From a virus (lineage: Duplodnaviria > Caudoviricetes): a DNA stretch of 48,776 nucleotides. Below, piece after piece: positions 9,205-32,346 of this stretch (position 1 is the first letter of the stretch; the number at the start of each line of letters is the position of its first letter). A program made the translations under genes and the position numbers. The DNA lies in the IMG/VR virus record IMGVR_UViG_3300011114_000473, positions 1 to 48,776 of that record; one strand, given 5' to 3'. The notes beneath the pieces were generated by a model. The model saw only the letters and a program-made list of their open reading frames with translations, was not told the origin of the DNA and searched no databases.

Positions 9205-11562
9205 ATGCCGCTTACCCCAGGTTTGGGTTCCAGTATCCGGCTCGCCCCCCCAACGGAGCCGGAATTGTCGCCGCCGTCCGATCTGAACGTCCCCCCGGAT
9301 CAGGATGGCGGCGACGTTTTGCATTTCGATGACAGCGGCGCGGTGCTGAAGATTGAGCATGAGGACGGCTCGGTCACGGTCTCTCTTGACGGCAAGCCCA
9401 TCGATGAACCCCGCGAGAAGCAAAATGCGGGCTGGTTCGGCAATCTGATCGAAGACCTCGACGATATGGAGGAGGGCCGGATCGCCGAGGATCTCATGCG
9501 TGGGATCGGAGACGACATCATCTCCAGATCGGAGTGGATCGAGGATCGGGCCTCGGGCATCAAGCTACTCGGCCTCAAGATCGAAGTCCCCGGCCTTTCC
9601 GGCTCCTCCGAGGGCGCTCCGGTCGATGGCATGAGCAAGGTTCGCCACCCGCTTCTCATGGAGGCGGTTCTTCGCTTCCAGGCCAACGCGCGGTCGGAAC
9701 TCCTGCCCACGGACGGCCCGGTCAAGATCCGCAACGACAACAACGACGCGACGGTCCAGAACGACCATCTGGCGAACATTCTTGAGAAAGATCTCAACCA
9801 TTACCTGACGGCGGTCGCGACCGAGTATTATCCGGACACCGACCGGATGCTTCTACTTCTCGGGTTTGGCGGGACGGCCTTCAAGAAGGTCTATTTCTGC
9901 CCGCTCCGGAATCGCCCCGTCAGCGAGACGGTCGATGCGGACGACCTGATCGTCAACAATGCGGCCACCGATCTCGGGAATGCCAAGCGCATCACCCACC
10001 GCACTCTGATGCGGCCCTCGACGGTGAAGCGGCTCCAGATTCTCGGCGTCTATCGCGACGTCGATCTACAGACACCGAATCAGGCAAACCTCGACAGCGT
10101 CCAGCTTGAGAAGCGGTCTCAAGAAGGCATCGCGCCGTCCACATCGAACCCCGAAGACCGCGACCGGGAGATCTACGAATGCTACTGCGAACTCGACATC
10201 AAGGGGTTTGAGCACAAGTGGAAGGGCAAAGAGACCGGCCTTGAGATCCCCTATGTCGCGACCATCGACGTAACCTCCAAGAAGATCCTCTCCCTGGTCC
10301 GGAACTACGAAGAACCCAAACCGGACGACGACAACCAACTCCCCGAGCCGCGTCAAAAGTTCGTCAAATACACCTTTGTCCCGGGCTTCGGCTTCTACGA
10401 TATCGGGCTACTGAACATCCTCGGCAACACCACGAACGCCATCACCGCGGCGTGGCGGGAGATGCTCGACTCAGGGATGTTCGCCAATTTCCCCGGCTTT
10501 CTCATCTCGAAGATGGGCTCGCGGCAGAACACCAACATTTTCCGCATTCCTCCCGGCGGTGGAGCGCAGGTCGAGACCAACGGCCAGTCCATCCGCGACG
10601 CGATCATGCCGCTGCCCTATAGCGCGCAGGGGCTTCCGGCTCTTGGCGCCCTCGTGGACAACATGGCTCAGACGGGGATGAGGGTCGGGGGAACCTCGGA
10701 GCAGCAGGTCGGCGAAGGCCGTGCCGATGCGCCCGTAGGCACGACGCTTGCGCTGATCGAGCAGGCGCAGAAGATTCTCAACGCGGTTCACAAGCGGATG
10801 CATGCGGCGCAGGCGCAGGAGTTCCAGCTACTCGCCAAATGCTTCAAGGACCATCCGGATTCGTTCCTTCGCCAGCGCAAGATGGCGTCACGGCATTGCT
10901 GGAACGAGCAGGAGTTCCGACAGGCGCTTGAGGATTGCAACCTCGTCCCGCAGGCCGATCCCAATACCGCGTCGCACACTCAGCGCATTATGAAGGTGAT
11001 GGGGCTGAAGCAACTCCAGGCGGCCCAGCCGAGCCTCTACGACCCCATCGCCATCGACATGGTCGCGTTGCAGGCACTGGGTTGGTCGAACCCGCAGCAG
11101 TTCATGGCACCGCCGTCCGCCCAAGCCTCACCGCCTCCGCAATTGCTCCAGGCGCAGGCGGAATCCCAATCGAAGATGATCACCGCGAACGCCCGCATGC
11201 TGGATGCCCAGACCAAGGCAAAGCAGGCGATGGCCCCGGCCCCCGGCTTGGGCGCCGCGACTGTCAGCAAGGGTCCGTCCGACGACGAGCTCCAGATCAA
11301 GGCCATGGAGGCCGAGACCAAGGCGAAGCAGCTTGAGGTGACGGCTCGGAACAACGAGTTGGACGCGCACAGCCAAAACGCCGACCGGGAGAAGGATCTC
11401 GCGATCCAGCGGGCCAAGATCATCGTGGAAGAGATGCGGTCGCGTGACGACCGGGTGCATGACCACGGGATGCAGGACAAGGCGCTCGCCGCGCAGCACA
11501 TCTCAAGCGCGATCGCCGCATCCAAATCCATCGCGCCTAGAAAGGGTTACCCCAATGCGTGA
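9205..11562 (+). CDS. Portal protein (P22-like podovirus type)
   Basis: 785 aa ORF after terL; HPLLMEAVLRFQANARSELLPTDGPVK, GTAFKKVY, PGFGFYDIGL and APVGTTLALIEQ; coiled-coil C-terminal barrel. Confidence 0.9.
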   Translation: MPLTPGLGSSIRLAPPTEPELSPPSDLNVPPDQDGGDVLHFDDSGAVLKIEHEDGSVTVSLDGKPIDEPREKQNAGWFGNLIEDLDDMEEGRIAEDLMRGIGDDIISRSEWIEDRASGIKLLGLKIEVPGLSGSSEGAPVDGMSKVRHPLLMEAVLRFQANARSELLPTDGPVKIRNDNNDATVQNDHLANILEKDLNHYLTAVATEYYPDTDRMLLLLGFGGTAFKKVYFCPLRNRPVSETVDADDLIVNNAATDLGNAKRITHRTLMRPSTVKRLQILGVYRDVDLQTPNQANLDSVQLEKRSQEGIAPSTSNPEDRDREIYECYCELDIKGFEHKWKGKETGLEIPYVATIDVTSKKILSLVRNYEEPKPDDDNQLPEPRQKFVKYTFVPGFGFYDIGLLNILGNTTNAITAAWREMLDSGMFANFPGFLISKMGSRQNTNIFRIPPGGGAQVETNGQSIRDAIMPLPYSAQGLPALGALVDNMAQTGMRVGGTSEQQVGEGRADAPVGTTLALIEQAQKILNAVHKRMHAAQAQEFQLLAKCFKDHPDSFLRQRKMASRHCWNEQEFRQALEDCNLVPQADPNTASHTQRIMKVMGLKQLQAAQPSLYDPIAIDMVALQALGWSNPQQFMAPPSAQASPPPQLLQAQAESQSKMITANARMLDAQTKAKQAMAPAPGLGAATVSKGPSDDELQIKAMEAETKAKQLEVTARNNELDAHSQNADREKDLAIQRAKIIVEEMRSRDDRVHDHGMQDKALAAQHISSAIAASKSIAPRKGYPNA

Positions 11563-12382
11563 TCAACAGCAGGCGATCAGGGCCGCGCTCCGCATTGCGC
11601 GCGCCGGCAAAGATATCGGCGGCGGATTGAGTTCGATCGGCTCGTTCAACGCGCTCGGGCCGGGAGATGTTCTGGAGACCATTGGAGCGGGATCGGCGGC
11701 CAACCGGCTTCCGCCCAATGTTCATGCGGGCGCGACGAACCCCACCGCGTTGCGGTCGCCTGGCGTTGTGAAGATCCCGCCGCTGCCGAAGCCGGGAGAT
11801 CCGGTAGGGGTGATCGCCCCTCTACCTCCGGGCAGTTCGCCCACAACCCCCGCAATGGGATCGGGCGAAGGCGTCAACGGTGCCGATGATCACGGCATGG
11901 AGGGCCTTGCCTTCGGCAACAACGACGCGGTCGGACGCGGCATCCAGTCGGCGCTCGGCATGATGGGCGTCCACGGTGGCTTCGATGGCGGTGCCTCGGC
12001 GGCTATCGGCAAGGGCAACGCAGATAGCCATAGCGCGGACGCTCAACAGGCCGAAAACAATTCCGGTACCTACGACGGCGGTTATGGCGGTGCTGATAGC
12101 GGCGGCGGTGGCCCCGGCCAAGGCAGCAGCGACGGCCCCGGTGGTTGGGGCATGGGCATGGGCGGCGACGATGGCGGCGGCGGAACTGGCGGGTTCGGCG
12201 GGTATGCTAATGGCGGCTACATCCCCCTGCATCGAGCCTCTGGCGGCGCTGTAGATCCCGTCGTCCTGAAGGCGCTCCACGTCATCGCGACCGACCTCGC
12301 TCATCTCGCCCACGACCACGGAATCCCCCCTCACGAACTCGCGGGAAGGATTGCCCGCATCTTTCTTCCACGAAGGAGCTAA
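11555..12382 (+). CDS. Gly-rich hypothetical virion/internal protein with xxxGG motifs
   Basis: MRDQQQAIRAALRIAR start overlaps the portal stop; YANGG and RASGG motifs. Confidence 0.65.
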   Translation: MRDQQQAIRAALRIARAGKDIGGGLSSIGSFNALGPGDVLETIGAGSAANRLPPNVHAGATNPTALRSPGVVKIPPLPKPGDPVGVIAPLPPGSSPTTPAMGSGEGVNGADDHGMEGLAFGNNDAVGRGIQSALGMMGVHGGFDGGASAAIGKGNADSHSADAQQAENNSGTYDGGYGGADSGGGGPGQGSSDGPGGWGMGMGGDDGGGGTGGFGGYANGGYIPLHRASGGAVDPVVLKALHVIATDLAHLAHDHGIPPHELAGRIARIFLPRRS

Positions 12383-12387
12383 ACGCC

Positions 12388-13884
12388 ATGTCGGAAGCAT
12401 CGGTAGCCGCCCGCAAGGCGATGAAGGACAAGGCCCGCCGTATGACCGGCGCGGACAACGCTGAAAAGGTCGATGCGTCGAGTTGGACGCCGTCCGAGCC
12501 TGAGAATGCGGACAAGGCAACGGGCCTGCGTCCGATCTCTCCGCGCGCTTATCGCCGTGGCGGGAAGGTCGGCATGGTGGCATCCGGCGAGAAGACCGCG
12601 ACCCGCGCAGATCGCAAGCCCCGGAAGTCCGGTGGATCGGCGAACGATTACATCAACCGCGACGTGAAGGCCGCCAATGCCGAGAAGGGCAAGCCCCATA
12701 TCGGCGGGTATAAGAACGGCGGTCGGCCCGGCAAGATGTTCGGCGGACAGATGGTCGATCCCCGCGCCCTCGCCGAAGCCAGCGTAACAGACGCCGGAAA
12801 CCGCAGCGGCGTCGGATCGGCGCGCATGAGTTTCCAGGGCTCCAAGGGCACGCCGCTTCCCTACAAGAAGGGCGGCGAGGCGCGCAAGAAGCGATTGGCT
12901 GGTGGCCGGTCGCTTGGCGAGACGGTCGATACACAAAACAAAACGCGCGAGATGGATGATATCGAGCGCAACAACTACAGGGCCCAGCGTTCTAAGGGAT
13001 TTGCCAAAGGTGAGTCCCAATATCATGCGACCAATCCGCCCGGCAGGCTTTTTGATGAAGGCACTCCCGACCCCTGGGATGAGGCCGAAGGAAAGATGCG
13101 GGGCGGGAAGGCGAAGCATTCCGATGAAGCCGAGGACAAGGCGCTCATCAAGAAGATGGTCAAGAAGGCCGACCTGAAGCCTGCCGCGAAGTGTGGTGGC
13201 GGCGCGATGAAGAACGGCGGCAAGGCGCTGCGCGCGCGAGGCGGGAAGGCTCCGGAATGGGAACAGCGCCAAATCCTCGACCGAATGAACGAAAAGACTG
13301 ATCGAGAGCGGAACGCCGCCGCCACTCGGAAAACATTTCCCAATGTCAGCAAGATGACAAGCGAAGGTCACCCCGATTGGGATGCTATGGGCGTCAAGGG
13401 AACCGGGCAGCGCGCTCGTGGCGGGAAGGCATCACACGGCACCGATTGCGACTGCAAAGCCTGCCGCGCTTCGGGCGGGAAAGCCGGGAACTACACCGGA
13501 GGCACTCGCCCGACTGGCGGCCGGATCGCCAAGGCCTCGGGCGGGCGTACCGGCAAGGGCAAGATGAACGTAAACATCGTCATCGCGCAGCCCGGCCAGA
13601 ATCAACCGGCCGGACAGCCCCCGATGCAGCCCCCGCCGCGCCCGGCCATGCCGATCCCGGTTCTCCCGCCGACGATGGCCCCGCAGATGGGCGGCATCAG
13701 CGCGCCTCCCGCTGCCATGCCGAGCCCCGTTGGTGCGGCACCTCCGATGTCCATGCCGATGCCGATGCCGATGCCCCGCCAGTCCGGAGGGCGCACCTAC
13801 CGCTCCTATAAGGACATGGACGCGGGAAGCCTTGGGGGTATGGGTCGTTTGGAGAAGTCCGAGATCCAGGCGCACAAGCGGTAA
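12388..13884 (+). CDS. Basic low-complexity protein with about 15 [YRKM]xxGG repeats (putative internal/head protein)
   Basis: AAGGAG RBS; YRRGG, RKSGG, YKNGG, YKKGG, RLAGG, KMRGG, MKNGG, RARGG x2, RASGG, KASGG, RQSGG; Pro/Met-rich C-terminal linker. Confidence 0.8.
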   Translation: MSEASVAARKAMKDKARRMTGADNAEKVDASSWTPSEPENADKATGLRPISPRAYRRGGKVGMVASGEKTATRADRKPRKSGGSANDYINRDVKAANAEKGKPHIGGYKNGGRPGKMFGGQMVDPRALAEASVTDAGNRSGVGSARMSFQGSKGTPLPYKKGGEARKKRLAGGRSLGETVDTQNKTREMDDIERNNYRAQRSKGFAKGESQYHATNPPGRLFDEGTPDPWDEAEGKMRGGKAKHSDEAEDKALIKKMVKKADLKPAAKCGGGAMKNGGKALRARGGKAPEWEQRQILDRMNEKTDRERNAAATRKTFPNVSKMTSEGHPDWDAMGVKGTGQRARGGKASHGTDCDCKACRASGGKAGNYTGGTRPTGGRIAKASGGRTGKGKMNVNIVIAQPGQNQPAGQPPMQPPPRPAMPIPVLPPTMAPQMGGISAPPAAMPSPVGAAPPMSMPMPMPMPRQSGGRTYRSYKDMDAGSLGGMGRLEKSEIQAHKR

Positions 13885-14114: not shown

Positions 14115-14528
14115 ATGCCCGCATTGAAGATGTTGCACACCGTTGACCCCCGCGACGCGCTTCTCGAAAGGCTCGGCGACACCTCCAAGATCGAGGTCTT
14201 CAACAACCTCGTTCTGGTGGCGATCTACGAACGCCCGGAGAAGACCAGCGGCGGATTGATTCTCCCCGGTCAGAACCTCGCGGAAGACCGGCATCAGTCC
14301 AAGGTCGGGCTCGTCATCCGCACGGGGCCATCGGCCTTTGTTTCGGATGGCAACTGGTTCAACGGCATCAAGGTCGATGTGGGCGACTGGATCCTGTTCC
14401 GCGCCTCGGACGGTTGGCGGCTCGATCTCCCGGCCAGGATTAACGGCAGGAGCAGCGAAGTCCCGTGCCGGATGCTTGAGGATGTCGCGGTCAAGGGCCG
14501 CATCGACCATCCCGACCGGGTTTGGTGA
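14115..14528 (+). CDS. groES: Co-chaperonin GroES (Cpn10)-like protein
   Basis: NLVLV...EKTSGGLILP mobile loop, GLVIRTGP and VDVGDWILF; AGGAG RBS. Confidence 0.88.
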   Translation: MPALKMLHTVDPRDALLERLGDTSKIEVFNNLVLVAIYERPEKTSGGLILPGQNLAEDRHQSKVGLVIRTGPSAFVSDGNWFNGIKVDVGDWILFRASDGWRLDLPARINGRSSEVPCRMLEDVAVKGRIDHPDRVW

Positions 14529-14539: not shown

Positions 14540-15469
14540 ATGGACGCCACCGAAACCTCTGTTCTGGAAAAAGAACCCGAAATCATCGTCGAAACGGCGC
14601 CGGAAGTCGTTGTCGAGCACGAAAACACGACCGATAACACCCCGACCGTCGATGAAAGCCTCGATACCCTGACGCGGCAGCTTGAGGCGAAGAACCAAGA
14701 GGCGATAGATGAGCGCAAGGGGCGTCTCGACGCCGAAAAGCGCGCGTATTCCGCTGAAACCACGGCGCGGCAGGCGACGGGCAGTGTTGACGAGACCAAT
14801 CTTCAATTGATCGGCAGCGCGCTCGAGCAAACCGCCCAGCAGCAGGCCATCCACAAGGCCAATCTGAGGACCGCGCTCCAAAACGGCGACGCCGACGCCA
14901 TGGCCGACGCACAAGAGCAAATCGCGATCCTCGCCACGCGGAAAGCGCAGCTTGAAAACGGCCAGTTCGCGCTTGAGGAGCACATCGAGCGGAAGCGTAA
15001 CGCGCCGCCGCCCGTTCTTCATTCCGATCCGGTCGAGCAGTTGGCTTCCGGTCTGACGCCGCGGTCGGCATCCTGGGTGCGCTCGCATCCCGAATACGTC
15101 CGCGACCCCCGGCTCAATCGCAAGATGATCCGGGCGCATGAAGACGCGATGGACGACCGCCTCTCCGTCGATACCGACGAGTATTTCCAGTTCATCGAAA
15201 GCCGGTTGGGCCTCGGTCAGCAGGAAGTCACGCGCCGCAACGATGTGCAGCAGGACGATTCCCCGATGTCGGAAGCCTCGGCCCCGACCGCTCGCAGAAC
15301 ACCCCCTCCCGCCGCTCCCGTGACCCGTTCCGGCACGCCGAACGGTCAACGCCCCGGTGTCGTCCGCCTCTCCAGTCAGGAGAAGGAGATGGCCGACATG
15401 ATGGGCATGACCGAGATCGACTACTGGAAGAACAAGGAAGCCCTGAAGCGCGAAGGCAAAATCCACTAA
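14540..15469 (+). CDS. Putative capsid scaffolding protein
   Basis: Acidic N-terminus, coiled coil, PAAPVTRS and a C-terminal VRLS..EKEMA..MGMT...Y motif; position after groES. Confidence 0.7.
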   Translation: MDATETSVLEKEPEIIVETAPEVVVEHENTTDNTPTVDESLDTLTRQLEAKNQEAIDERKGRLDAEKRAYSAETTARQATGSVDETNLQLIGSALEQTAQQQAIHKANLRTALQNGDADAMADAQEQIAILATRKAQLENGQFALEEHIERKRNAPPPVLHSDPVEQLASGLTPRSASWVRSHPEYVRDPRLNRKMIRAHEDAMDDRLSVDTDEYFQFIESRLGLGQQEVTRRNDVQQDDSPMSEASAPTARRTPPPAAPVTRSGTPNGQRPGVVRLSSQEKEMADMMGMTEIDYWKNKEALKREGKIH

Positions 15470-16130: not shown

Positions 16131-16844
16131 ATGACCACGGGCCTGACCTACACGACCTATGTGACGCAGATCGCGACGCTGGCCGTTGTCTCGTCCACAG
16201 ACACGGCGTTCGTCACCATCCTCCCGCAGATGATCACCTATGCGGAAAATCGGATTTACCGGGATCTCGATCTGCTTTCGACGGTCGATTCCGCGACCTA
16301 TACGATGACGCCATATCAGCGGACCGTCTCGGTTCCCGCAGGCGACTTCGTGACGCTTCAGCAGGTTAACATCATCACCCCGTCCGGAACGACAAATCCC
16401 GATCAAGGGGCGCGGAATCCCCTCATCCCCGCGACCAAGGAATATCTGGATTTCGTCTGGTCGAGCAGTTCCGGATCGGGGCTCCCGACGCTCTTTGCGA
16501 TGATCAATCAGAGCACGTTCATTGTTGGCCCTTGGCCGGATGCGAACTACACGGCGGAAGTTGTCGGAACCATCCGCCCGCAGTCGCTCAGTAGTTCCAA
16601 TACGACTACGGTCATATCGAGCCTTTTCCCCGACCTCTTCATCATGGCGTCGATGATCTATGTGTCGGGCTATCAGCGCAATTGGGGACGGCAAGCCGAC
16701 GACCCTCAGATGGCTCAATCATACGAGAACCAATATCAGCTTCTCCTCAAATCTGCCGGTGTTGAAGAACAGAGGAAGAAGTTCGCCAGTGGCGGATGGA
16801 CATCTATGTCCCCGGCCCCCGTCGCCACCCCGTCGCGGGGGTGA
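16131..16844 (+). CDS. Head-tail adaptor / tail tubular protein A-like
   Basis: ITYAENRIYRDLD, GPWPDANY and PDLFIMASM motifs; precedes the gp10-like gene. Confidence 0.7.
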   Translation: MTTGLTYTTYVTQIATLAVVSSTDTAFVTILPQMITYAENRIYRDLDLLSTVDSATYTMTPYQRTVSVPAGDFVTLQQVNIITPSGTTNPDQGARNPLIPATKEYLDFVWSSSSGSGLPTLFAMINQSTFIVGPWPDANYTAEVVGTIRPQSLSSSNTTTVISSLFPDLFIMASMIYVSGYQRNWGRQADDPQMAQSYENQYQLLLKSAGVEEQRKKFASGGWTSMSPAPVATPSRG

Positions 16845-19283: not shown

Positions 19284-20483
19284 ATGACAGTATCACGGGA
19301 TCAAGCCATCGCATCGGCATTGCGGATCGCGAGGAAGCCGAGGGCAAGCGGAGGTGCGTCCAACGATACGCCAGCGAACCTTGATAGGTTTATGGCGGGG
19401 AACCATCCTGATGTGCCGCGAGTGCTTTATCACGGGACCGGCGTCGATAATCGCGGCACGTTCAAGATGCCCGCGTTCTTCACCTCCGCTCCGCATGGCG
19501 CGAATTGGTATGCACAAGAGCGTGGAGATAATCCTCATATCGCCCCAGTCCATCTTTCAATGAAGAACCCCTTGAATGCCACAAGCAAAGAGGGTGCTTT
19601 TAAGTTGATTGATTTTGCCAAGAAGGCGGGCGTTCATACTGAAGTGAAAGACAGCACACACGGCTGGAGTTTTCACAGCAGAGATATTCCAAAACACAGC
19701 CCGTATGATGGGGATCATCATCTGGACTTGCTTTACATCCCTGCGGTGAGGAATGCGCTACAGAAAGCTGGACATGATGGCGTGATCGCTAGCGATCCGC
19801 TGGGGAGTGACGAGATACCGACATATATCCCCCTCCACCCTCACCAGATCAAGTCCGCCACCGGCAACAACGGGGCATTTGACCCGAACGACCCTGACAT
19901 CACCAAGGCAGGCGGCGGCCCCATAGTTGCTGGCGGCCTCGCCCCGGGCGAACCCCTAGAGCCGAAGGAGCGCGTCCAGGCTGGTGGCACAAAGGTCAAG
20001 ACCCACACCGGCCCGATCCATTCCGCCGTCGCCGGTCGCACCGATCACCTTCCGATGCACGTTCCTGCCGGGGCCTATGTCCTGCCCGCCGACATCATCT
20101 CCGCCATGGGCGAAGGCAACACCATGGCGGGCTTTAAAGTGGCAAAGGATATGTTCGCGCAGCCAACTTATGGAAACGCCTCCCCAGGCGGCGGCGCTCC
20201 CTATGACCAGTACGCTCCCATGCCCTATGGGGTGAGTGTGCCGAGGGCTGCCGGCGGCGAGGTCTATCACGGCTACGCTCGCGGCCACCCCGTTGAGCCG
20301 CCCGCCGATCCCGTTCCTATCATCGCCGCTGGAGGAGAGTTCGTCATCCATCCCCGCGATGTCGCCCGAATCGGCAAGGGCAACATGGATGACGGTCACG
20401 CCATTCTCGACCACTTCGTCAAACAGATGCGCGGCAAGACGGTGAAGACCCTTCAGGGTCTACCCCCGCCGAAGAAGGATTGA
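19284..20483 (+). CDS. Putative internal virion protein carrying an ADP-ribosyltransferase (ART-PolyVal-like) domain and two GEFV-type modules
   Basis: VLYHGT, FFTS...A..YA, PVHLSMKNP, GHDGV and QIKSATGNNGAFDPNDPDI; C-terminal GRTDHLPMHVPAGAYVLPAD and AGGEFVIHP. Confidence 0.75.
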   Translation: MTVSRDQAIASALRIARKPRASGGASNDTPANLDRFMAGNHPDVPRVLYHGTGVDNRGTFKMPAFFTSAPHGANWYAQERGDNPHIAPVHLSMKNPLNATSKEGAFKLIDFAKKAGVHTEVKDSTHGWSFHSRDIPKHSPYDGDHHLDLLYIPAVRNALQKAGHDGVIASDPLGSDEIPTYIPLHPHQIKSATGNNGAFDPNDPDITKAGGGPIVAGGLAPGEPLEPKERVQAGGTKVKTHTGPIHSAVAGRTDHLPMHVPAGAYVLPADIISAMGEGNTMAGFKVAKDMFAQPTYGNASPGGGAPYDQYAPMPYGVSVPRAAGGEVYHGYARGHPVEPPADPVPIIAAGGEFVIHPRDVARIGKGNMDDGHAILDHFVKQMRGKTVKTLQGLPPPKKD

Positions 20484-20485
20484 CC

Positions 20486-21016
20486 ATGCAAGCCATCGCA
20501 CTCGTCAAATCAAATGCCCCCGCCATCAACCTGCGGGTTGGTACGCCCGACGATGTTGACGGGGTCATGGGCCTCGCCATCGCAGCGAGTAAGGAAAACG
20601 GCTTCGTCGATTCCGATCCCGCCGAGATGCTGAACGACATCTGGCCCGCGCTCAATCTCGACGCGGGCATCATGGGCGTGATCGGCGTACCGGGTCAGGC
20701 CCCCGAGGGTGCGGTCCTCCTGCGAATCGGGAAGATGTGGTACTCGAAAGCGCGGGTTCTGGAAGAGAAGGCGATCTTCGTCCATCCGGATTTCCGCAGC
20801 GCGAAGGGCGGACGGGCAAGTCGCCTCTGCGAGTTCTCCAAGCATGTCTCGGACAAGCTGGAATTGCCGTTGGTTATCGGCGTCCTGAGCAATGCCCGGA
20901 CGGATGCGAAACTGCGCCTTTACGAGCGACACTTCGGCCCCCCTGCGGGCGGCTTCTTCCTTCACAACGCCAAGACGGGTCAAGGGGCTCTTGTCCCCGC
21001 CGTCGCTCACGGATAG
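20486..21016 (+). CDS. GNAT-fold protein (P22 gp14-like position)
   Basis: LRVGTPDDV start, FVHPDFRS and KLRLYER motifs; immediately upstream of the MGG- pilot protein. Confidence 0.75.
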   Translation: MQAIALVKSNAPAINLRVGTPDDVDGVMGLAIAASKENGFVDSDPAEMLNDIWPALNLDAGIMGVIGVPGQAPEGAVLLRIGKMWYSKARVLEEKAIFVHPDFRSAKGGRASRLCEFSKHVSDKLELPLVIGVLSNARTDAKLRLYERHFGPPAGGFFLHNAKTGQGALVPAVAHG

Positions 21017-21025: not shown

Positions 21026-24000
21026 ATGGGCGGCAAAACCACACAATCGACCTCACAGGTCCAGATCCCGCCGGACGTTCTGGCGCGATACAACTCGGTC
21101 AACGCCAGAGCGGAAGATACTGCTTCAGCGCCGTTCCAGTCGTATAGCGCGGATCCCAACGCCTTCGTGGCCCCTCTGACGGAAACGCAGGTCGCGGGCG
21201 TCAACAACACGAACGCTGCCAGCGGGATGGCGCAGCCCTATTACAACGCGGCGACAGGTCTAACCGTTTCAGGCGCTCAGTCCGCCGATCCAAGCCAGAT
21301 CAATGCGGGAGCGATCAATCAATACCTCTCCCCCTTCCTGGGCGATGTCTATGCCGCGACCTTGGCGGGTGAGAACCAGCAGAACCAGATCCAGGCTTCG
21401 GGGCTTAAGGGCGAGGCGATCAAGGCGGGCGCTTTTGGCGGAGATCGAGCGGGAGTTGCACAGGCGAATCTCGCCTATAATCAGAACCTCGCCAACACTC
21501 AGAGAAACGCGGAACTCCTGAACACCGGCTACAACACCGCTCTTGGCACAGCCCAGCAGCAGCAGGGCGTTGACCTCGGCGCTCGGCAGCAGAACCTTGC
21601 CCGATTGACCAAAGCGGGTGAACAGATCGCAGGATTGGGAACTACATCCCAGCAAGCGGCGCTTACCGGGGCGCAGGCTCAACTCGCAGCAGGCACGGCG
21701 GAGCAGCAGACCCAGCAGGCGGGCCTGTCGGCTCTCTACAACCAATTCCTTCAGGAGCAGGGCTACCCGTTCCAAGTGTCGCAATTCCTCGCCAACATCG
21801 CCGAGGGTACGGGCGCGCTTTCGGGCAGCACCACAAACACGACCACTCCCGGCGCCGCATTCTCCGACATCCGTCTCAAGGACGACGTGCAGGAGATCGG
21901 CAAGACCTTCGACGGGCAGAAGATCATCCGTTTCCGTTACAAGGGCTCGCCCAAGACACAGATCGGCCTCGTGGCGCAGGATGTCGAAAAGCATCATCCG
22001 CATGCTGTCGGGTTGGCATCTGGCTATAAGACCGTCGATTACGATGAAGCGACACGCCCCGCGGCGAATAAGGGGCATTATGCCAGTGGCGGGTTAGTTC
22101 CTGCGGCGGATGGCGGAACGGTGACGCTCTCCCGGTCTGGCGAGGGCTACGCCTCGGGTGGCGTCACTGGTTATGACCCAGCGGTCTATTCCGACATCCT
22201 ATCCCGCCAACAGGGGATGTATGGGAAGGGCGGCCTTAGCGGTGCGCAGATTTTTGGTGGCCCGCATGGGATCGCCATTTCTTCCGGCCCGAAACGCGAT
22301 CTGGTCACATCGAAGTACCTGCCGCAGGCGCAGCCCAGCACCGCCTCCCAAGTCATGGATGGTGCGGATCAGGCTCGGAAGTTCGCGGGCACGGCCAAGA
22401 GCGGATACCAAGGATACAAGGATCTCAAGGACTGGTGGAACAAGCCCAACGAAGATGACATCACCGCAAAGAAGGGCTTCAACGACGACAACAGCGGCAA
22501 CCTGATCGGGTCCGAATCCGATAGCGCCGCCGATATTGATGCCAGCCTCGCCGATGAAGGCGGTGGTGGCATGATGGGCGGCGTCATGGGCGGCGGGCCG
22601 ACGAGCGGCTTCGGCGGCTGGAAGCGTGGGGGCCTTGTTCCCCACGGCTACGCCGGCGGCGGAGACGTAGACCCCTATGCGCTGAAAGACGGTGACACCT
22701 CTTATGTGCCGCAAGATGAAGGTGGGGGCAATGGTGGTGCAGATCATGGCGGTCTGAAGTCGGCCCCTCCTCCGAAGGTCCAGCCCAAGGATCCCGCTGG
22801 TGGTGCGATGAAGGGTGCCATGACCGGCGCGACTTCGGGTGCGATGTTCGGTCCCTGGGGTGCTGTCATCGGTGGTGTTGGCGGCGCGCTTTATGGCGGG
22901 TTGAGCAACAGCAACCGGGGCGGACGGATCAACCGCTATTCGGGCGGGCTCGTTCGTCATGGATATGATGACGGCGGGGATGTGGATCCTGACGCGTCCC
23001 CCGAAACTCAAGCCCCTCGACCATGGCGTCTCTTCGATCCCATCGGCCCATCGTATAGCGAGCGATCCGCCGCAGCCGCTGAGGCGGATCGTCAGCGCCG
23101 CGACGCGCAGGAGGCTATCGATTCGACCACGGTGAACCCTAGCCCCACAGATTGGCAGCAACAATTTGCGGATGATGCGAAACGAAGCCGTGCCGACGCG
23201 CGCGCGCGCCGTGAAGATGGACTCACAGGGCCGCCGGCACGCGATTCTCCAGCGCCGACGAAAGAGCCGCCCGTTGCAGCGCCAGCCCCGGCACGCGATT
23301 CTCCAGCGCCGACGAAAGAGCCGCCCGTTGCAGCGCCTCCGGTTGCGAAAAACGCTCCCGCCCCTCGTGCGCTCTTCGTCCCGCCGTTTGAAAAGTCTTC
23401 CGGTCTTGGTGGCGCAGAACGCCCGGTATCTCGACCGCTGGCTGCGGGTGCGTCCCCGCATTCGGACAAGCCTGGATTCCTTTCTCAACTCGGCGATTTC
23501 GTGACGAGCGAGAAAGGCATCATCCCGATCCTCACCGGCATTGGAGCCATGGCCTCGAGCCCGAGCCGTTACGGATGGGCAGCCGCTCTACAAGGTCTTG
23601 GTGCTGGCGCTCAAGCCTATGAAGGCGTCCAGAACCAGATGCAGAAGCGGGAACAGTCTGAGGCGCAGACACAGGGCTTCCGTCTCGCCAATGTCAAAGG
23701 ATCCATTACCCCGCCCATCGGTCAGAAGACCTTGGTCCGTGATCCCGCCACCGGGAACCCTGTCTATATGTCCAATAACGAGTTCTATGAGAGAACCCGC
23801 GCCGGAGAACGCATCCAAGTTCTGGGCGATGGGCCGGGTGCGACAGGCGGAGGAATCCCAACGGGTGGCGATCAGACCACTCCGGGCGCGCAGAGCTACG
23901 CCCCGAAGTCACAGGCGCCGACAGTCACCCCCGGCGTTACCTATGACGACAAATCCCGTCAATCGGCGCTTCGGGAAATTCCGATGGGCCCCGGACAGCA

Positions 24001-24679
24001 GGCGTTGAGCGACAAGACCTACGGCGAAGTGATGCAGGCGGCGGATATTGGCCGCCAAGGTCGCCCCATGATGCTGGAGACGGTCAGTCAGATCGCGAGC
24101 GCCAACCAAAACGCCGCGCTCGGAACTCCTGGCGCATCCTTTAGCGGCCGCGCGGCGGCGACGAACGTGCTCAATACGCTCGCCCGAGCCATGGGGTTGA
24201 ACGCTCCTTTCGGGGAACAGGACGAGCAGAAGGCGATAGTTGACAAGGTTCGCACGCTGGAAGCGGCCCTCCTGGCGAATGGCGGCGATCAGCGCGCCAT
24301 CTCCGCCATTCAAGTCCTCATGGGCACATACCCGAGCCTTGACATGCCACCAGCCGCAGCGGCGGAGCTTGCGGCTCAATTGATGACGGCGAGGCAGCGG
24401 ACCATCGACCGCGCGATCCATATGCGCCAATACAAGGACGATGCCGACACCTCTAATGGCTCTGTTATGAACGAAGCAACCGACTTTGAACGCGCCCAGG
24501 CCGATCGGTATCAGCGCGAGACCAAGATCATCGGCAACCTCATCTTGGACCCGTCTGGGAACGGGGCAAAGGCGCTGGAGAGTATGCGCCGCGGTGAAGC
24601 GTCACCTAGACAGATCGATAATTGGTTCACCAAACATTACGGGCTTAGTGGCATGAGCCGGTATTTCAGGGCGGATTAG
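21026..24679 (+). CDS. Large DNA ejection/pilot protein with an internal peptidase S74 (intramolecular chaperone) domain
   Basis: MGGKTTQSTS start, Gln/Ala-rich helices, FSDIRLK...IGLVAQDVE...YKTVDY (about 21860-22050), glycine-zipper segments and many xxxGG motifs. Confidence 0.75.
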   Translation: MGGKTTQSTSQVQIPPDVLARYNSVNARAEDTASAPFQSYSADPNAFVAPLTETQVAGVNNTNAASGMAQPYYNAATGLTVSGAQSADPSQINAGAINQYLSPFLGDVYAATLAGENQQNQIQASGLKGEAIKAGAFGGDRAGVAQANLAYNQNLANTQRNAELLNTGYNTALGTAQQQQGVDLGARQQNLARLTKAGEQIAGLGTTSQQAALTGAQAQLAAGTAEQQTQQAGLSALYNQFLQEQGYPFQVSQFLANIAEGTGALSGSTTNTTTPGAAFSDIRLKDDVQEIGKTFDGQKIIRFRYKGSPKTQIGLVAQDVEKHHPHAVGLASGYKTVDYDEATRPAANKGHYASGGLVPAADGGTVTLSRSGEGYASGGVTGYDPAVYSDILSRQQGMYGKGGLSGAQIFGGPHGIAISSGPKRDLVTSKYLPQAQPSTASQVMDGADQARKFAGTAKSGYQGYKDLKDWWNKPNEDDITAKKGFNDDNSGNLIGSESDSAADIDASLADEGGGGMMGGVMGGGPTSGFGGWKRGGLVPHGYAGGGDVDPYALKDGDTSYVPQDEGGGNGGADHGGLKSAPPPKVQPKDPAGGAMKGAMTGATSGAMFGPWGAVIGGVGGALYGGLSNSNRGGRINRYSGGLVRHGYDDGGDVDPDASPETQAPRPWRLFDPIGPSYSERSAAAAEADRQRRDAQEAIDSTTVNPSPTDWQQQFADDAKRSRADARARREDGLTGPPARDSPAPTKEPPVAAPAPARDSPAPTKEPPVAAPPVAKNAPAPRALFVPPFEKSSGLGGAERPVSRPLAAGASPHSDKPGFLSQLGDFVTSEKGIIPILTGIGAMASSPSRYGWAAALQGLGAGAQAYEGVQNQMQKREQSEAQTQGFRLANVKGSITPPIGQKTLVRDPATGNPVYMSNNEFYERTRAGERIQVLGDGPGATGGGIPTGGDQTTPGAQSYAPKSQAPTVTPGVTYDDKSRQSALREIPMGPGQQALSDKTYGEVMQAADIGRQGRPMMLETVSQIASANQNAALGTPGASFSGRAAATNVLNTLARAMGLNAPFGEQDEQKAIVDKVRTLEAALLANGGDQRAISAIQVLMGTYPSLDMPPAAAAELAAQLMTARQRTIDRAIHMRQYKDDADTSNGSVMNEATDFERAQADRYQRETKIIGNLILDPSGNGAKALESMRRGEASPRQIDNWFTKHYGLSGMSRYFRAD
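23234..23337 (+). repeat. Perfect 50-bp direct repeat, 54-bp period (PARDSPAPTKEPPVAAP x2)
   Basis: Copies at 23234-23283 and 23288-23337. Confidence 0.9.
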
Positions 24680-24681
24680 TC

Positions 24682-26985
24682 ATGGACACCACTGACGACG
24701 ACCTCGGGCCGCTTGCTGGTTTTAGCCCTGCCGCACTCCCTGTTTCCGAGGTTGCCGGTGGCGACGACGACCTTGGGCCACTTGCTGCGTTTGTGCCAGG
24801 GCAGGGGAACACCAAGCCACCACCCGGCGGGAATAAGCCACCACCAAAGGTCGGTCCGGAACCCGGTGACGATACCAACTACGCCGAGATGGGCTGGAGC
24901 CCCGTCCTCAACTCGGCCATCGGGAATTTCGGCAAGAGTGGCAGGAAAGAACTGTCCGCGGTTTATGATACCGTTGCCCATCCCATCGAGACGGCGAAGG
25001 CCATCGGGCAGATCGGAACGGGGATTGGCTCCAAGGTTTCCGGTTATTTCGGCGCGCAGCAGGATCCGAAGCAGAAAGCCACAGATGAGGCTGCCGCAAA
25101 CGCGATAGGCGAACATTTCAGCAATTATTTTGAGCCGGGGGGCCTGAAGAAGGCCATCGCCAATGATCCGGTCTCGGTGCTTATGGATTTCAGCACCGTG
25201 GCGTCAGGCGGGCAACTGGCTCTTGGCCGCGCTCCCGGCTTGATTGGCAAGGCCGCGCGGGTCGCGGGCAGCGTGGGATCGGCGGTTGATCCGATTCAAA
25301 ACGTATGGCGAGTGGCGAAGGTCGGGGCATACCTGCCGCAGAAGTTGGTCAAAGCGGTTGTCCCTCACTTCCAGGCTGCGGGGACGGGCGTGGATGCTAA
25401 CGCATTTAAGCTGGCTGGTGAATTTGGCGCTTCTTCGGATCCGGTTGTAAAAGAAGCCTTCCGGATGGGCGTCAAAGACAAGACATCAGGCTACACGCTC
25501 GTTGATAAGGTCGATGATGGGATTAGAGACATCGCCGACGACAGAGGTGCCGCGTATGTCAAGCAGGCGAGGCGAGAGGGAGTGAAGGGTGCTGCCCCCG
25601 GCACGATGCCCGCTCTGGATTGGCGGCCAATTAATGACGCCGTGTCCAAAATCAAAAACGAAATTTACGCGACTGACCAATTCGGAAGGGTCGTCGAAAA
25701 TGTGCCCGAGGCAATCCCCGCCTACAACAAAATCGTGGCAGAAATAGCAAACCGGCAAGCGTCACTACCGGGATCGACACATCATACTCTTGAGGGGTTC
25801 GACGGCCTCAAGAAAAACATCAGTTCCGTGATCGATAGCGCAGGCCCGAATCAGTCTCAACGCTGGGTCGGAACGGCGATGTATAACGCTGTTCTCGATG
25901 AAATTACCAAGAAGCATCCCGGCTACGCCGCGATTATGAAAGAGTATCAGGACGCATCAAAGCAGCTGAAGGATCTCCGGGCAAGCCTTGGTGCTGGCAA
26001 GTCTGGCAATGCGGCGGCGGCAAGCGGACAGATGGTCAAGATATTGCGGCAATACAAAAAGGGCGATCCAGGCAATTTGATCGCTGCGCTTGCGGCAAAA
26101 GATCCCACAATTATCCCGATGCTGACCGGTCGTGCGTTAAGCGAAGTACTCCCCGGCGGCTTGCGCGGATTTTTCGAGACCCCCGCCGCTATCGCCGCTT
26201 TCATGGTTCATCCGGCATTGCCTCTTAGTCTCGTTGGAAGTTCCCCCCGCATTATGGGGGAACTCAATTATCGCGCTGGGCAGGCAACAAGATTGCCGGG
26301 GCAAGTAACGCCGTTAAGAGGCGACCTAGCTTATCAGGGGGCGGCGCTGACGCATGAGCAGCAGCAACCAAATTCCCCCACGCAGCAGCGGCCGCAGGTT
26401 CTTCCTGTGCAGACGCAGAAGCCCGTCCTTTCGGGGGCGGCATTGCCTCGGAACATGAGGAACAACAATCCGGCGAACATCGAGGATGGGCCGTATGCCC
26501 GATCCCAACCGGGCTATGCTGGCGGTGATGGCCGCTTCGCCCGATTCCAATCCCAGGCCCATGGGGACGCTGCGGGGGATGGGCTTCTTCGCCGCTACGG
26601 ATCTATGGGGCGCGATACGCCGGAGAAGGTCGTCACGAAGTGGTCCCCCTACGAAGACAATCCGGCCGCATCTGTCCGCGCCTCAATCGCCCGTGTCGCA
26701 TCGGCGCTCGGCGTTCGCGCGGACGACCGGATCGACATGATGAACCCGGAGATCCGCAAGAAGGTCTATGCGGCCATTGTGCGTGGCGAGGCAAATACCG
26801 GTGGTCGTATCCAGCGCGCGACCGGTGGCAAGGTTCAGCGGGTCAACCACGAGGCCGAGGCGGCAAAACTTGTCAGAGCGGCTGATGCGTCGCGCAAGCG
26901 GCTCGGCGAGCGAACGGAGCCCTTGCTTGATAGTTCGGACACCATGGTCGCTCACGCCCTGGCGGTGGTCAATAAAGCGATCTGA
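24682..26985 (+). CDS. DNA ejection protein with a C-terminal lysozyme-like (RNNNPxNI) domain
   Basis: 767 aa; RNNNPANI...RFARF...KWSP..DN muralytic-like motif near 26450-26795; SSPRIMGE; terminal NTGG and RATGG motifs. Confidence 0.7.
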   Translation: MDTTDDDLGPLAGFSPAALPVSEVAGGDDDLGPLAAFVPGQGNTKPPPGGNKPPPKVGPEPGDDTNYAEMGWSPVLNSAIGNFGKSGRKELSAVYDTVAHPIETAKAIGQIGTGIGSKVSGYFGAQQDPKQKATDEAAANAIGEHFSNYFEPGGLKKAIANDPVSVLMDFSTVASGGQLALGRAPGLIGKAARVAGSVGSAVDPIQNVWRVAKVGAYLPQKLVKAVVPHFQAAGTGVDANAFKLAGEFGASSDPVVKEAFRMGVKDKTSGYTLVDKVDDGIRDIADDRGAAYVKQARREGVKGAAPGTMPALDWRPINDAVSKIKNEIYATDQFGRVVENVPEAIPAYNKIVAEIANRQASLPGSTHHTLEGFDGLKKNISSVIDSAGPNQSQRWVGTAMYNAVLDEITKKHPGYAAIMKEYQDASKQLKDLRASLGAGKSGNAAAASGQMVKILRQYKKGDPGNLIAALAAKDPTIIPMLTGRALSEVLPGGLRGFFETPAAIAAFMVHPALPLSLVGSSPRIMGELNYRAGQATRLPGQVTPLRGDLAYQGAALTHEQQQPNSPTQQRPQVLPVQTQKPVLSGAALPRNMRNNNPANIEDGPYARSQPGYAGGDGRFARFQSQAHGDAAGDGLLRRYGSMGRDTPEKVVTKWSPYEDNPAASVRASIARVASALGVRADDRIDMMNPEIRKKVYAAIVRGEANTGGRIQRATGGKVQRVNHEAEAAKLVRAADASRKRLGERTEPLLDSSDTMVAHALAVVNKAI

Positions 26986-28488: not shown

Positions 28489-28490
28489 TG

Positions 28491-28664: not shown

Positions 28665-29289
28665 GAATACGAACGCTCCGTTCGGTTTCAGGCAGTATTT
28701 CGGCGGCTCTGGCGGAGCCCCCACCTTCTCCGTCGGCTCCTATCGGATCGCGTCAACTGACACGACCAAGGTATTCTCGGGCGATGTTGTCCAGCCGGTC
28801 GTTTCGACGGCGACGGGCTACATCACGCAGGGCACCGCCAGCACCACGGTCATCACGGGCATCTTTACCGGGTGCACATACCTCTCCGTTTCCCAGAAGC
28901 GGACGGTTTGGAACTCCTACTGGCCCGGTGCCGACGCAAGCGGGGATGTCACCGCGTATGTGGTCGATGACCCGAACGCGCAGTTCGTGGTTCAGGGCGG
29001 CTCAACGACTTTCAACATCGGCGGCACGCTGACGACCTGGACTACGTCCCCGGTCGGTCAATACGCGATGTACACGGTCGGAAGCGGCAACACCTCGACC
29101 GGGCAGTCCGGATCGTACCTGAGCGCCCTCGGCACGACGGTCACCTATCCCTTCATCGTCCGCGGCTTGATCGACTTCCCGCCCGGCGGACCTGGGGCTG
29201 ACCCCCTCTCCGCCTACAACTGGGTTGTCGTCGGCTTCAACGACCAGCTTCTGCGCTCGAATGGCGCAGGACCGACTGGCATCTCTTAA
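28660..29289 (+). CDS. Capsid decoration/cement protein
   Basis: MANTNAPFGF start and YVVDDPNAQFVVQ motif; directly precedes the major capsid gene; strongly biased codons. Confidence 0.75.
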   Translation: MANTNAPFGFRQYFGGSGGAPTFSVGSYRIASTDTTKVFSGDVVQPVVSTATGYITQGTASTTVITGIFTGCTYLSVSQKRTVWNSYWPGADASGDVTAYVVDDPNAQFVVQGGSTTFNIGGTLTTWTTSPVGQYAMYTVGSGNTSTGQSGSYLSALGTTVTYPFIVRGLIDFPPGGPGADPLSAYNWVVVGFNDQLLRSNGAGPTGIS

Positions 29290-29302
29290 GGAGTAGGGAA
29301 AA

Positions 29303-30217
29303 ATGGCTGTCAATCTTTCTGCCATCAAAGACCTTCTCCTCCCCGGTCTTCGTGGGGTTGAAGGCAAGTACGAGATGATCCCGTCTCAGTACGACAAGAT
29401 CTTCACCAAGCACAATTCCAAGATGGCCTTGGAGCGCACCGCTGAGATGCGCTACCTCGGGCTTGCCCAACTCAAGACCGAAGGCGGCCAGACCGCTTTC
29501 GACAACAGTGCTGGCGAGCGGTTCGTCTATAACCAAGAGCATACGGAAATCGCTCTCGGTTACGCCATCACCCGCAAGGCGGTGGACGACAACCTCTACA
29601 AGACCCAGTTCCACCCGTCGAACCTTGGCCTGATCGAGTCCTTCCAGCAGACCAAGGAAATCTTCGGCGCAAACACGCTGAACACCGCGACGACCTACAA
29701 CGCCAACATCGGCGGTGACGGTGTCGCGCTCTGCTCGGCGAGCCATCCGATCGACGGCGCGACGGTCGCCAACATCCCCTCGGTGGCGCAGGATCTCAAC
29801 GAAGCATCGCTGCTCAACAGCATGATCGCGGTCCGTACCAACTTCAAGGATCAGGCTGGCCTCAAGGTCTTCGCCCGCGCCCGGAAGCTGGTCGTTCCTC
29901 CCCAGCTTGAGCCGGTGGCGATCCGTCTGACCAAGACCGAGCTTCGGCCCGGCACGGCGGACAACGACGTCAACGCGCTCTTCCAGACCGCTGGCGGATT
30001 GCCCGAAGGTTACATGGTCAACGACTTCCTGACCTCGTCCTATGCGTGGTTCCTGCTGACCAATATCGACGGGCTCTCCTACATGGAGCGCATCAAGTTC
30101 GAGACGGACATGCAGGTCGATTTCGTGACCGACAACCTGCTGGTGAAGGGCTACGAACGCTACTCTTTTGGCTATTACAATTGGAGATCAATATTTGGTT
30201 CATTCCCCACTTCTTGA
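29303..30217 (+). CDS. Major capsid protein (Mu gpT-like HK97 fold)
   Basis: KDLLLPGL, GDGVALCSASHP, KLVVPPQLE, GTADNDVN and YERYSFGYYNWRSIFGS; AAGGAG RBS. Confidence 0.92.
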   Translation: MAVNLSAIKDLLLPGLRGVEGKYEMIPSQYDKIFTKHNSKMALERTAEMRYLGLAQLKTEGGQTAFDNSAGERFVYNQEHTEIALGYAITRKAVDDNLYKTQFHPSNLGLIESFQQTKEIFGANTLNTATTYNANIGGDGVALCSASHPIDGATVANIPSVAQDLNEASLLNSMIAVRTNFKDQAGLKVFARARKLVVPPQLEPVAIRLTKTELRPGTADNDVNALFQTAGGLPEGYMVNDFLTSSYAWFLLTNIDGLSYMERIKFETDMQVDFVTDNLLVKGYERYSFGYYNWRSIFGSFPTS

Positions 30218-30253
30218 TAGAATGTGGAATACAACCAAGTAATGGAGCCCCTG

Positions 30254-30958
30254 ATGCGCGAAACGATAACTCAGCAAAGACTACGGGAGTTGGTGTCATA
30301 CGACGCCGACACCGGAATCTTTACTTGGGTTGCTAAATGGCGCGGTATTCTTACCGGCCACGAAGCTGGCTCTGTTGATCCGAATGGGTATCGCGTCATT
30401 AGGCTCGACAAAACCGACTACCTCGCGCAAAGGCTGGCGTGGTTCTGGGTGCGTGGATCGTGGCCTCGCCTGATTCGATTTCAGAATGGCGAGAGGGCAG
30501 ACTGCCGGATCGAGAATCTGTGTGAGGGCTTTTATCTCACGACAAAGCATGATTCCCGGACGAAAGAAGGCCGCGCGTCCTACCAGCTTGAATATCGTGC
30601 GGCACGGCGAGAAGTATTCTCGGCCAAGCAGCGCGAGCGCAAATACGGCATCACGCTCGCCGAATACTCCGAGAAGGTCGCCGCTCAGGGCAATCTCTGC
30701 GCCATCTGCGGCAAGCCGGAAACGGAGTGTCGCGGGGGCAAGTTGAAGGCGCTCGGGGTTGACCATAACCACGAGACAAATGAGATCCGCGATCTCCTTT
30801 GCACGGCTTGCAACAAGCTGATCGGCCTCGCCAACGAAGACCGGGACGTTCTTCTCTCGGCCATCAAGTACCTCGATCGGCATTCGGGCGAGGCTGTCGT
30901 TTCCCCTCTCTACCGGGTAACTCCCGGCGTCGCACGCGGCGAAACAGGAAAGGTATAG
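30254..30958 (+). CDS. Free-standing homing endonuclease: degenerate HNH N-domain fused to an endonuclease VII domain
   Basis: ITQQRLRELVSYDADTGIFTW...RLAW...NGERADCRIENL, then KYGITL..Y....QGNLCAICG...VDHNH.T..IRDLLC..CN..IG. Alternative start at GTG 30224. Confidence 0.85.
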   Translation: MRETITQQRLRELVSYDADTGIFTWVAKWRGILTGHEAGSVDPNGYRVIRLDKTDYLAQRLAWFWVRGSWPRLIRFQNGERADCRIENLCEGFYLTTKHDSRTKEGRASYQLEYRAARREVFSAKQRERKYGITLAEYSEKVAAQGNLCAICGKPETECRGGKLKALGVDHNHETNEIRDLLCTACNKLIGLANEDRDVLLSAIKYLDRHSGEAVVSPLYRVTPGVARGETGKV

Positions 30959-30961
30959 TCC

Positions 30962-31993: not shown

Positions 31994-32007
31994 GCTAGGA
32001 GGATCAA

Positions 32008-32346
32008 ATGAAGGGTCATAAGGCTCACCATCACCGCAAGGCGAAGGCTGACGGCGGCGAAGCTCACGGCGACGCGGCGACGGGTTCCAAGGAATACGAG
32101 GAAGACCTGTCGGACAAGCCTGCTCGTTACAACATGAGCAAGGTCGAGAACGAGGCGGAAGAGCGCAAGGCCGGTGGGCGGACCAAGAAGAAGATGGTCG
32201 GCTCGGTTCATGGTCTGGCGGCGAAACACAACGCCGGTCGCAAGCCCCGGAAGTCCGGTGGGCGCGCGGGTTCCGACATGAATCCGTTCTCCTCGGCGCG
32301 CAGCGGCACGCCGCCGAAATACCACAAAGACACCCAGATCGATTGA
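32008..32346 (+). CDS. Small basic protein with xxxGG motifs
   Basis: AGGAGG RBS; KADGG, RKAGG and RKPRKSGG (the last is also present in ORF 12388). Confidence 0.75.
   Translation: MKGHKAHHHRKAKADGGEAHGDAATGSKEYEEDLSDKPARYNMSKVENEAEERKAGGRTKKKMVGSVHGLAAKHNAGRKPRKSGGRAGSDMNPFSSARSGTPPKYHKDTQID

Follow-up and report, generated by a model that had tools for sequence, protein, structure and literature searches.

We analysed a stretch of 48,776 nucleotides, hereafter the window (positions 1 to 48,776 of the IMG/VR virus record IMGVR_UViG_3300011114_000473; Duplodnaviria, Caudoviricetes), for a short peptide motif ending in Gly-Gly that recurs in six proteins of its structural region, named here by the first position of their genes (11555, 12388, 19284, 21026, 24682, and 32008). 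Judged by sequence comparison, the motif, [R/K/Y/F]-[A/K]-x-G-G, is real, is conserved at the level of protein, and marks joints in internal cargo proteins, which the phage likely packs and injects. In relatives, modules (ART-PolyVal, PBECR5, LPD23, InPase, M15, and others) come and go and change their order at it. We put at about 50% the probability that the motif, at the module joints of internal proteins, is a maturation cut site, cut after its first residue. The virus itself is, by its predicted proteins, a short-tailed podophage with an SU10-type portal, in the broad group of MW202675, HTVC023P, and CRP-901.

Modules are exchanged at the motif

The comparison covered the top 80 among 595 nozzle loci, the top 80 among 590 portal loci, 8 genome loci, and named phages, and profiles were taken from Pfam, PHROGs, and NCBIfam. 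The clearest joints were found in relatives of 19284, a chassis protein encoded downstream of the nozzle gene (19284 to 20483, plus strand). Its profile matched 6858 clusters at E<=0.001; from the best 150 matches we excluded 44 (33 with no leader and 11 with no core, by pattern) and kept 106, and the 61 of these with inserts longer than 90 amino acids formed the set tested for joints. The ART domain is missing from most relatives, which consist of a leader, a single motif, and an end domain. Inserts enter exactly at the leader motif, singly or stacked, and close with a fresh copy of it. Compared with shuffled inserts, they start at a motif in 54 of 61 cases (1.9 expected) and end at one in 55 of 61 (4.3 expected). 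The first copy is part of the conserved chassis, and thus the copy at the insert end is the stronger test. We also observed a 47-amino-acid basic module, starting GLYANIHAK, that is gained or lost at the motif in relatives of 19284 (loci L025, at 12450 to 13166, L031, L035, and L061) and is present in one relative of 12388.

The second place of exchange is the slot after the portal gene. It encodes 275 amino acids in the window (11555) and chains of up to 2116 amino acids, polyvalent proteins, in relatives, for which we found 92 slot proteins, 61 of them nonredundant. Pfam matches were obtained in 19 of the 30 longest (ART-PolyVal, PBECR5, LPD23, InPase, GP88, GNAT, M15, and a cell-wall hydrolase), and an ART module occurs both in this slot and in the 19284 gene. 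Split at the motif, the chains give modules that recur beside different neighbours and in different orders. Only 2 motifs fall within 27 Pfam stretches, against 14.6 expected. Ends of internal homology in the 61 proteins (n=872) lie within 8 amino acids of a motif in 18.2% of cases against a null of 6.1%; for other GG sites the value is 11.2% against 11.8% (0.95-fold). The homology ends centre on GG itself, with starts at -4 to +3 and ends at +1 to +4. The proposal in the initial annotation that GG delimits modular cargo is therefore strongly supported by the joints in homologues, and the alignment of module boundaries that it had called for came out positive. In CRP-901 (L174, 35175 to 44747), the many variable genes of this slot are separate genes rather than one chain; those tested had neither motif excess nor a GExV domain.

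The motif is conserved in homologues

Unique relatives of each protein were scored with [YFRKMH][AKSRNQ]xGG against plain shuffles; these counts are not independent, because the relatives share ancestry. Motifs numbered 380 against 46.5 expected in relatives of 12388 (present in 41 of 41 proteins), 175 against 30.2 in proteins matching 19284, 151 against 57.5 for 21026, 30 against 3.8 for 32008, and 27 against 10.2 for 24682. Among controls, we counted 0 against 3.6 for the GNAT-like protein (48 relatives), 0 against 1.3 for the scaffold (28 relatives), 1 against 4.1 for the capsid (26 relatives), 5 against 9.6 for the terminase, and 42 against 29 for the nozzle protein. An excess in portal relatives (53 against 16.4) comes from one conserved internal site near residue 487, present in most, which is not a joint, and the portal was rejected as a substrate on this basis. 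One adaptor (16131 to 16844) has a single FASGG near its C terminus (residues 218 to 222), matched in only 3 of 66 relatives.

The motif also holds its position. Lack of conserved positions had been named in advance as a finding that would count against the motif; the positions proved conserved, which does not hold for the majority of the remaining GG pairs in the window. YASGG of 21026 is kept in 24 of 27 relatives, RATGG of 24682 in 16 of 18, RAAGG of 19284 in 35 of 48, all three sites of 32008 in 9 of 9, and four sites of 12388 in 30 to 34 of 31 to 34.

Counts within the window

All 17 peptide types listed in the initial annotation were found in the genes it had named, and [YRKM]xxGG, its pattern, has 32 matches across the six (4, 15, 3, 6, 1, and 3 in 11555, 12388, 19284, 21026, 24682, and 32008); AADGG, WKRGG, SNRGG, and ANTGG, given there as examples, fall outside that pattern. 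Plain shuffles gave 9.5 and shuffles with glycine positions fixed gave 15.1, with 27 the highest count among 1000. For the tighter core [YFRK][AK]xGG, we counted 19 matches where the two kinds of shuffle gave 1.8 and 3.0, respectively. Counts were near expectation in a further 21 genes between terminase and tail (7 against 6.2 for the pattern, 2 against 1.0 for the core), and thus, contrary to the initial claim, the motif is not genome-wide.

Enrichment over shuffles held for the six proteins pooled and only in part one by one. With glycines fixed, it was significant in 12388 (P=0.0005) and 32008 (P=0.035), marginal in 11555 (P=0.05), and not significant in 19284 (P=0.20), 21026 (P=0.21), or 24682 (P=0.76), so that the case for these last three rests on homologues. 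The six proteins were selected after the motif had been seen; for this reason also, the homologues are the real test.

A placement of motifs at domain borders had been described correctly. In 19284, the ART-PolyVal domain (residues 45 to 199) is flanked by RASGG (20) and KAGGG (208); in 21026, the S74 domain (280 to 328) is followed by YASGG (352); in 24682, the lysozyme-like region (587 to 707) is followed by RATGG (712). Three features had been overlooked: F is common at the first position, A or K is favoured at the second, and there is a separate terminal helix.

A protein-level signal and a terminal helix

The motif is free to vary in its codons, which points to a signal kept at the level of protein. 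The 660 distinct sites have 538 different 15-base encodings, and their glycine codons are the same as those of other GG pairs; codon use gives no support to a DNA-level recombination site, which we rejected. At the first position, Y, F, K, and R are enriched and D, E, P, and G depleted, and V stands two places past GG in 47% of slot sites. Sites in 12388 relatives favour R-K-x-GG-K/R and cargo sites Y/F/K-A-x-GG-x-V. In two fold models of the 19284 end domain, motifs fall in low-confidence loops. An origin as relic gene starts (M-A-x-G-G) was also rejected, as just 12 open reading frames begin so, mostly first ejection proteins or spurious frames.

Cargo chains often start or finish with a short amphipathic helix (pattern AIRAALRIAR / VAHALAVV), separated from the remainder by the motif. 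We found it at the N-terminal end of 21 of 61 slot proteins and at 25 of 47 complete C-terminal ends, compared with 0.01 per 40 interior residues, and in 37 of 49 relatives of 19284 and 6 of 16 of 24682; the 19284 profile also weakly matches the N-terminal end of 11555 (E=0.012). The pattern was absent from portal, capsid, scaffold, adaptors, and the GNAT-like protein. By analogy with the capsid targeting sequence of T4, this helix may be a loading tag, and it would suit the role of docking tag better than the motif does.

Where a cut would fall

Cleavage is favoured over docking by parallels in other phages alone, namely, T5 pb2 and crAss001 gp45. The tape measure pb2 of T5 is described as cleaved after R1127, by intact mass (PMC10038345); the sequence at the cut reads R1127|AEGG, and the 1219 amino acids of pb2 match the pattern at one other place. 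For gp45 of crAss001, portal-bound density is described for residues 425 to 552, and a further ordered piece (214 to 245) is placed in the tail, at a distance of 420 Å (PMC10172136). The portal-bound part opens with the A of N|AFGG (residue 425) and stops before F559-AYGG; the piece 214 to 245 sits between motifs at 207 and 261, with further sites at 330 and 560. In all, gp45 has nine [AK]xGG sites against 2.4 expected. Lambda gpH loses a C-terminal piece of about 14 kDa, the cut site and enzyme being given as unknown (PMC12617516). FATGG 733, YATGG 778, and MRDGG 842 are all the matches in gpH before a final GGG, and all lie within the removed C-terminal region. P22 gp7 is reported to mature to an N-terminal K-G-G-K-G through host OpdA (PMC8402733).

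In each of these parallels, GG appears to stay on the side of the new N terminus. From the T5 cut at R|AEGG and the order that begins at N|AFGG in crAss001, a cut in this phage would likely fall before A-x-G-G and not after GG. The analogy drawn initially to adenovirus, African swine fever virus (ASFV), and SUMO systems, in which the cut is after GG, is not supported: the lone mapped cut lies three residues before GG, and profile scans of this record found no clan CE or other prohead protease.

The motif would work like a polyprotein processing signal; membership in the adenovirus/SUMO or T4 systems was not shown. As we picture it, the terminal amphipathic helix would draw cargo chains into the procapsid, and the motif would separate this helix and every module from the rest. 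Each released module would start A/K-x-G-G, small products could pass the narrow portal-nozzle channel singly, and 12388 and 32008 would be cut to basic core peptides. Recombination at GG would yield a working joint because either neighbour rebuilds the motif, which would explain the plug-in evolution of modules.

A wider and tentative extension is that the head cargo of podophages, the cargo of crAssphages, and the tape measures of siphophages share one X|A/K-x-G-G maturation code, read by a single type of enzyme, either a peptidase of the host or the GExV domain. If it were true, any enzyme could be plugged into the injected polyprotein, the lambda gpH cut would be placed at F733|A734, and the parts of crAss gp45 lying 420 Å apart would be explained as separate pieces.

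Several points weigh against cleavage. No peptidase family besides the cis-acting S74 was found in 38 + 30 window proteins and 54 conserved neighbours, in a record that is about 83% complete. The motif is lacking in scaffold and capsid, the usual substrates of prohead proteases, and a first position of R, K, Y, or F is broad for a single enzyme. The crAss001 authors treat gp45 as a single chain (PMC10172136), and disorder by itself could account for the start of its density. A cut at F733 of lambda gpH would release about 12.5 kDa (12.3 kDa from residue 736, plus two residues) compared with the reported ~14 kDa. The JBD30 authors speculate on a cut at R1066, which is neither FASGG 1019 nor HATGG 1081, and the DT57C authors report no motif common to tape-measure end fragments (PMC10713586). 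For the 19284 end domain, no homology was detected either with T5 pb2C, where 830 of 1000 shuffles reached the score, or with the crAss gp45 domain (55 to 128 of 1000 as high; no PF25725 at E<=10), and the 19284 half-repeat bears a weak likeness to the C-terminal region of lambda gpH (6.7 bits; 3 of 1000 shuffles as high), so the parallels may be convergent. As for the helix, its pattern was derived from the same sequences on which it was counted and has off-target matches as well, among small-terminase tails (7 of 34) and nozzles (2 of 52).

Two further comparisons concern 19284. By tblastn, its half-repeat had weak matches to tape measures of mycobacteriophages (E=0.3 to 0.7). A homologue of the crAss cargo protein C1 (PF25725) was considered, since rejected: the Atlas feature score was 0.85, and homology was undetected by profile and shuffle tests.

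Search for an enzyme

The initial annotation had recognised no canonical prohead protease in the window, and family scans agree: neither a clan CE cysteine protease nor another prohead protease was found with Pfam, PHROGs, or NCBIfam in this record of about 83% completeness. A conserved HExxH protease was sought among neighbour genes and not found; the lone peptidase-like exception there is a SprT-like gene in MW202675. No Pfam match to an MPTase domain was obtained in 30 of the 61 slot proteins, many of whose modules belong to no family.

The end domain of 19284 consists of two copies of one unit, with single-unit homologues in MinM2, Caulobacter phage RW, DSL-LC04, and HTVC023P. That it might be a protease of known type was considered and rejected: Foldseek found no match in PDB at E<=0.001 for either of two confident models (predicted local distance difference test scores [pLDDT] of 73 and 91), which leaves room for a new fold. 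The best VIA Z was 3.3 for the domain, or 5.8 for the N-terminal hairpin only, and there was no PDB sequence match. Among hand-picked internal genes of 10 phages, six had the GExV unit, with the motif above expectation in five and marginal in RW; the four without it had motif counts of 0, 1, 0, and 2. Motif excess thus loosely tracks the presence of the GExV domain, which is suggestive only. Two enzyme candidates remain: a peptidase supplied by the host, in the way that OpdA acts on P22 gp7, and the GExV domain itself.

Alternative explanations

The best surviving alternative, a real contender though a less probable one, is that the motif is a short linear signal that stays uncut. Each copy would dock on some component of the virion, be it the portal, the GExV domain, or another cargo chain, or would bend or pause unfolding through the tail, so that every module would require a copy of its own. 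The failed protease search is consistent with this, as is the loose correspondence of motif excess and GExV domain in 10 phages. The hydrophobic residue two past GG would suit a short binding strand, the spacing of copies in 12388 (8 to 30 amino acids) would suit multivalent binding, and AFGG is ordered within the crAss portal complex. Against it, the separate terminal helix already resembles a loading tag, T5 is cleaved within the peptide, the motif is not packed onto the GExV domain in either fold model, and Caulobacter phage RW has the GExV domain with little motif excess.

It is improbable that two signals were pooled, the RKxGG repeats of 12388 and 32008 being DNA-binding core repeats and Y/F-A-x-GG in cargo a different signal. 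Such R/K-rich repeats would resemble RGG boxes. The two proteins supply 18 of the 32 counts in the window, the median net charge of 12388 relatives is +47, and residue preferences differ between 12388 and cargo sites; however, both forms occur within the same proteins and interchange at aligned joints, and R/K forms also border acidic cargo modules. Least likely is a mere flexible linker without a recognition role, spread by crossover at G-rich DNA microhomology: homology ends centred on GG and duplication of the motif on both flanks of an inserted module would fit, but other GG sites show no joint excess, third codon positions vary freely, residues at -3 and -2 are strongly preferred, and positions are conserved without swapping in 32008, the 24682 tail, and 12388.

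Features of the window

The genes for the portal, the six motif proteins, the scaffold, the GNAT-like protein, and the capsid lie on the plus strand. The SU10-type portal, which served as context and control (9205 to 11562; PF23899, E=7.7e-12), has a lone match, MRVGG, at residue 492. Adjacent to it, 11555 (11555 to 12382) is the nearly empty, glycine-rich cargo slot; we preferred the ATG at 11555 to the GTG at 11444 for the purine-rich stretch upstream. It encodes an N-terminal helix (11573 to 11602), KDIGG (11609), YANGG (12203), RASGG (12233), and a helix-like tail (12260 to 12289). The conserved basic protein 12388 (12388 to 13884; 91 K+R against 50 D+E) is predicted to be disordered (Atlas model pLDDT of 0.43) and has 10 to 15 motif copies, for example, at 12550, 12622, 12709, 12862, 13207, 13231, 13411, 13465, 13531, and 13777. 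By eye, its relatives have a conserved AG-x-G-x-GRLEK-like C-terminal element beyond the last motif. A phage GroES gene (14115 to 14528) stands directly downstream of 12388 and 13891 and is kept in all closed portal loci of close relatives. The probable scaffold (14540 to 15469), a control assigned by position and composition, has no GG at all.

In 19284, the leader helix (19305 to 19334) and RASGG (19341) precede the inserted ART-PolyVal domain (19416 to 19880; PF18760, E=3.2e-12), KAGGG (19905), and the doubled GExV end domain (about 19998 to 20480), with RAAGG (20244) within a loop of the latter. The GNAT-like acetyltransferase gene upstream of the first ejection gene (20480 to 21016) is motif free, and its PF13508 match (E=0.016) is below the cutoff. 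In relatives, this gene stands directly 5' of an ejection protein with an M-G-G or M-C-G-G start, and N-terminal acylation is possible.

The ejection protein 21026 (21026 to 24679; phrog_4287, DNA ejection protein, E=2e-11) starts M-G-G-K, and its N-terminal domain is homologous to stand-alone ejection proteins of ~300 amino acids. S74 is a self-cutting chaperone. The S74 domain of 21026 (21863 to 22009; PF13884, 29.2 bits, cutoff 22) has the S-D-x-R-L-K start as FSDIRLK at residue 279, and motifs follow at 22079, 22148, 22649, 22934, and 22964. The domain is present in 21 of 25 relatives, often in two copies (loci L002, L026, L029, L037, and others), and the motif excess persists in the 4 that lack it. 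The second half of 21026 was considered as a fused neighbour gene and not demonstrated (best E=0.007, one domain). The ejection protein 24682 (24682 to 26985; phrog_873, E=3.5e-20) has its lysozyme-like region at 26440 to 26802 and RATGG at 26815. Its C-terminal tail is conserved and helical, with a helix at 26944 to 26970; all 17 of the tails selected keep G-G unchanged. The major capsid protein, a control (29303 to 30217; phrog_371), is 88% identical to that of MW202675 and about 40% to those of HTVC023P and CRP-901. The small basic protein 32008 (32008 to 32346) has three conserved motifs, at 32044, 32164, and 32248.

Profile scans also identified a terminase with an intein, two adaptors, a nozzle protein, and a Mu-gpT-like capsid alongside the portal, GroES, GNAT-like, and ejection proteins. 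The LAGLIDADG intein (PF14890, PF14528) lies inside the large terminase (6418 to 9111). A gene with HNH and endonuclease VII matches is inserted immediately 3' of the capsid gene (30224 to 30958), and a pentapeptide-repeat protein is encoded on the minus strand (42952 to 43728; NCBIfam matches all below cutoff).

Comparison with known systems

A literature search, with most subscription papers beyond its reach, found no published description of the motif, and a marine phage proteomics paper (PMC12014285) contained nothing that bears on it. Should the motif be cut, the proteins injected by a very large group of uncultured phages would become readable from sequence, module by module, with exact predictions for the site and enzyme of lambda gpH cleavage and for the organisation of crAssphage cargo. 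Left uncut, it still amounts to a joint grammar, not described before, by which domain borders in polyvalent proteins are defined.

Adenovirus, ASFV, and SUMO clan CE proteases cut after GG. The present system resembles them in a Gly-Gly signal repeated in core proteins and differs in the register of the expected cut and in that no such protease was found. T4 internal proteins have a capsid targeting sequence and are cut by the protease gp21. A likeness would lie in the combination, on variable cargo, of a putative tag at the chain ends and a short, likely cut, signal; unlike in T4-type maturation, no prohead protease was found, and capsid and scaffold are without the motif.

Processing of polyvalent proteins was proposed by Iyer et al. 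in 2017 (PMC5512222) and assigned to built-in zincin (MPTase) domains; the passages seen name no joint motif, and the words "glycine" and "linker" are absent from the text. As in the proteins described there, ART-PolyVal, PBECR5, LPD23, and InPase occur in variable chains next to virion genes, here the slot after the portal and 19284 after the nozzle, whereas the MPTase processing domain was not matched in 30 slot proteins. The crAss001 cargo protein C1 (gp45, PF25725, PDB 7QOG chain M) is likewise encoded after the nozzle/muzzle gene, with A-x-G-G preceding its domain; unlike C1, 19284 has no PF25725 match, and the passages of PMC10172136 report neither cleavage nor motif. In P22, the first ejection protein, gp7, ends up with an N-terminal K-G-G, and 21026 starts M-G-G-K; the gp7 leader, however, is described as a single cut in another register and as dispensable (about 60% burst without it; PMC8402733). 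A likeness to the tape measures lies in the R1127|AEGG cut of T5 pb2 and a GEFV element of lambda gpH that aligns weakly with the 19284 half-repeat. Those are siphophage tail proteins with one cut, whereas here the motif stands in many copies in the head cargo of a podophage.

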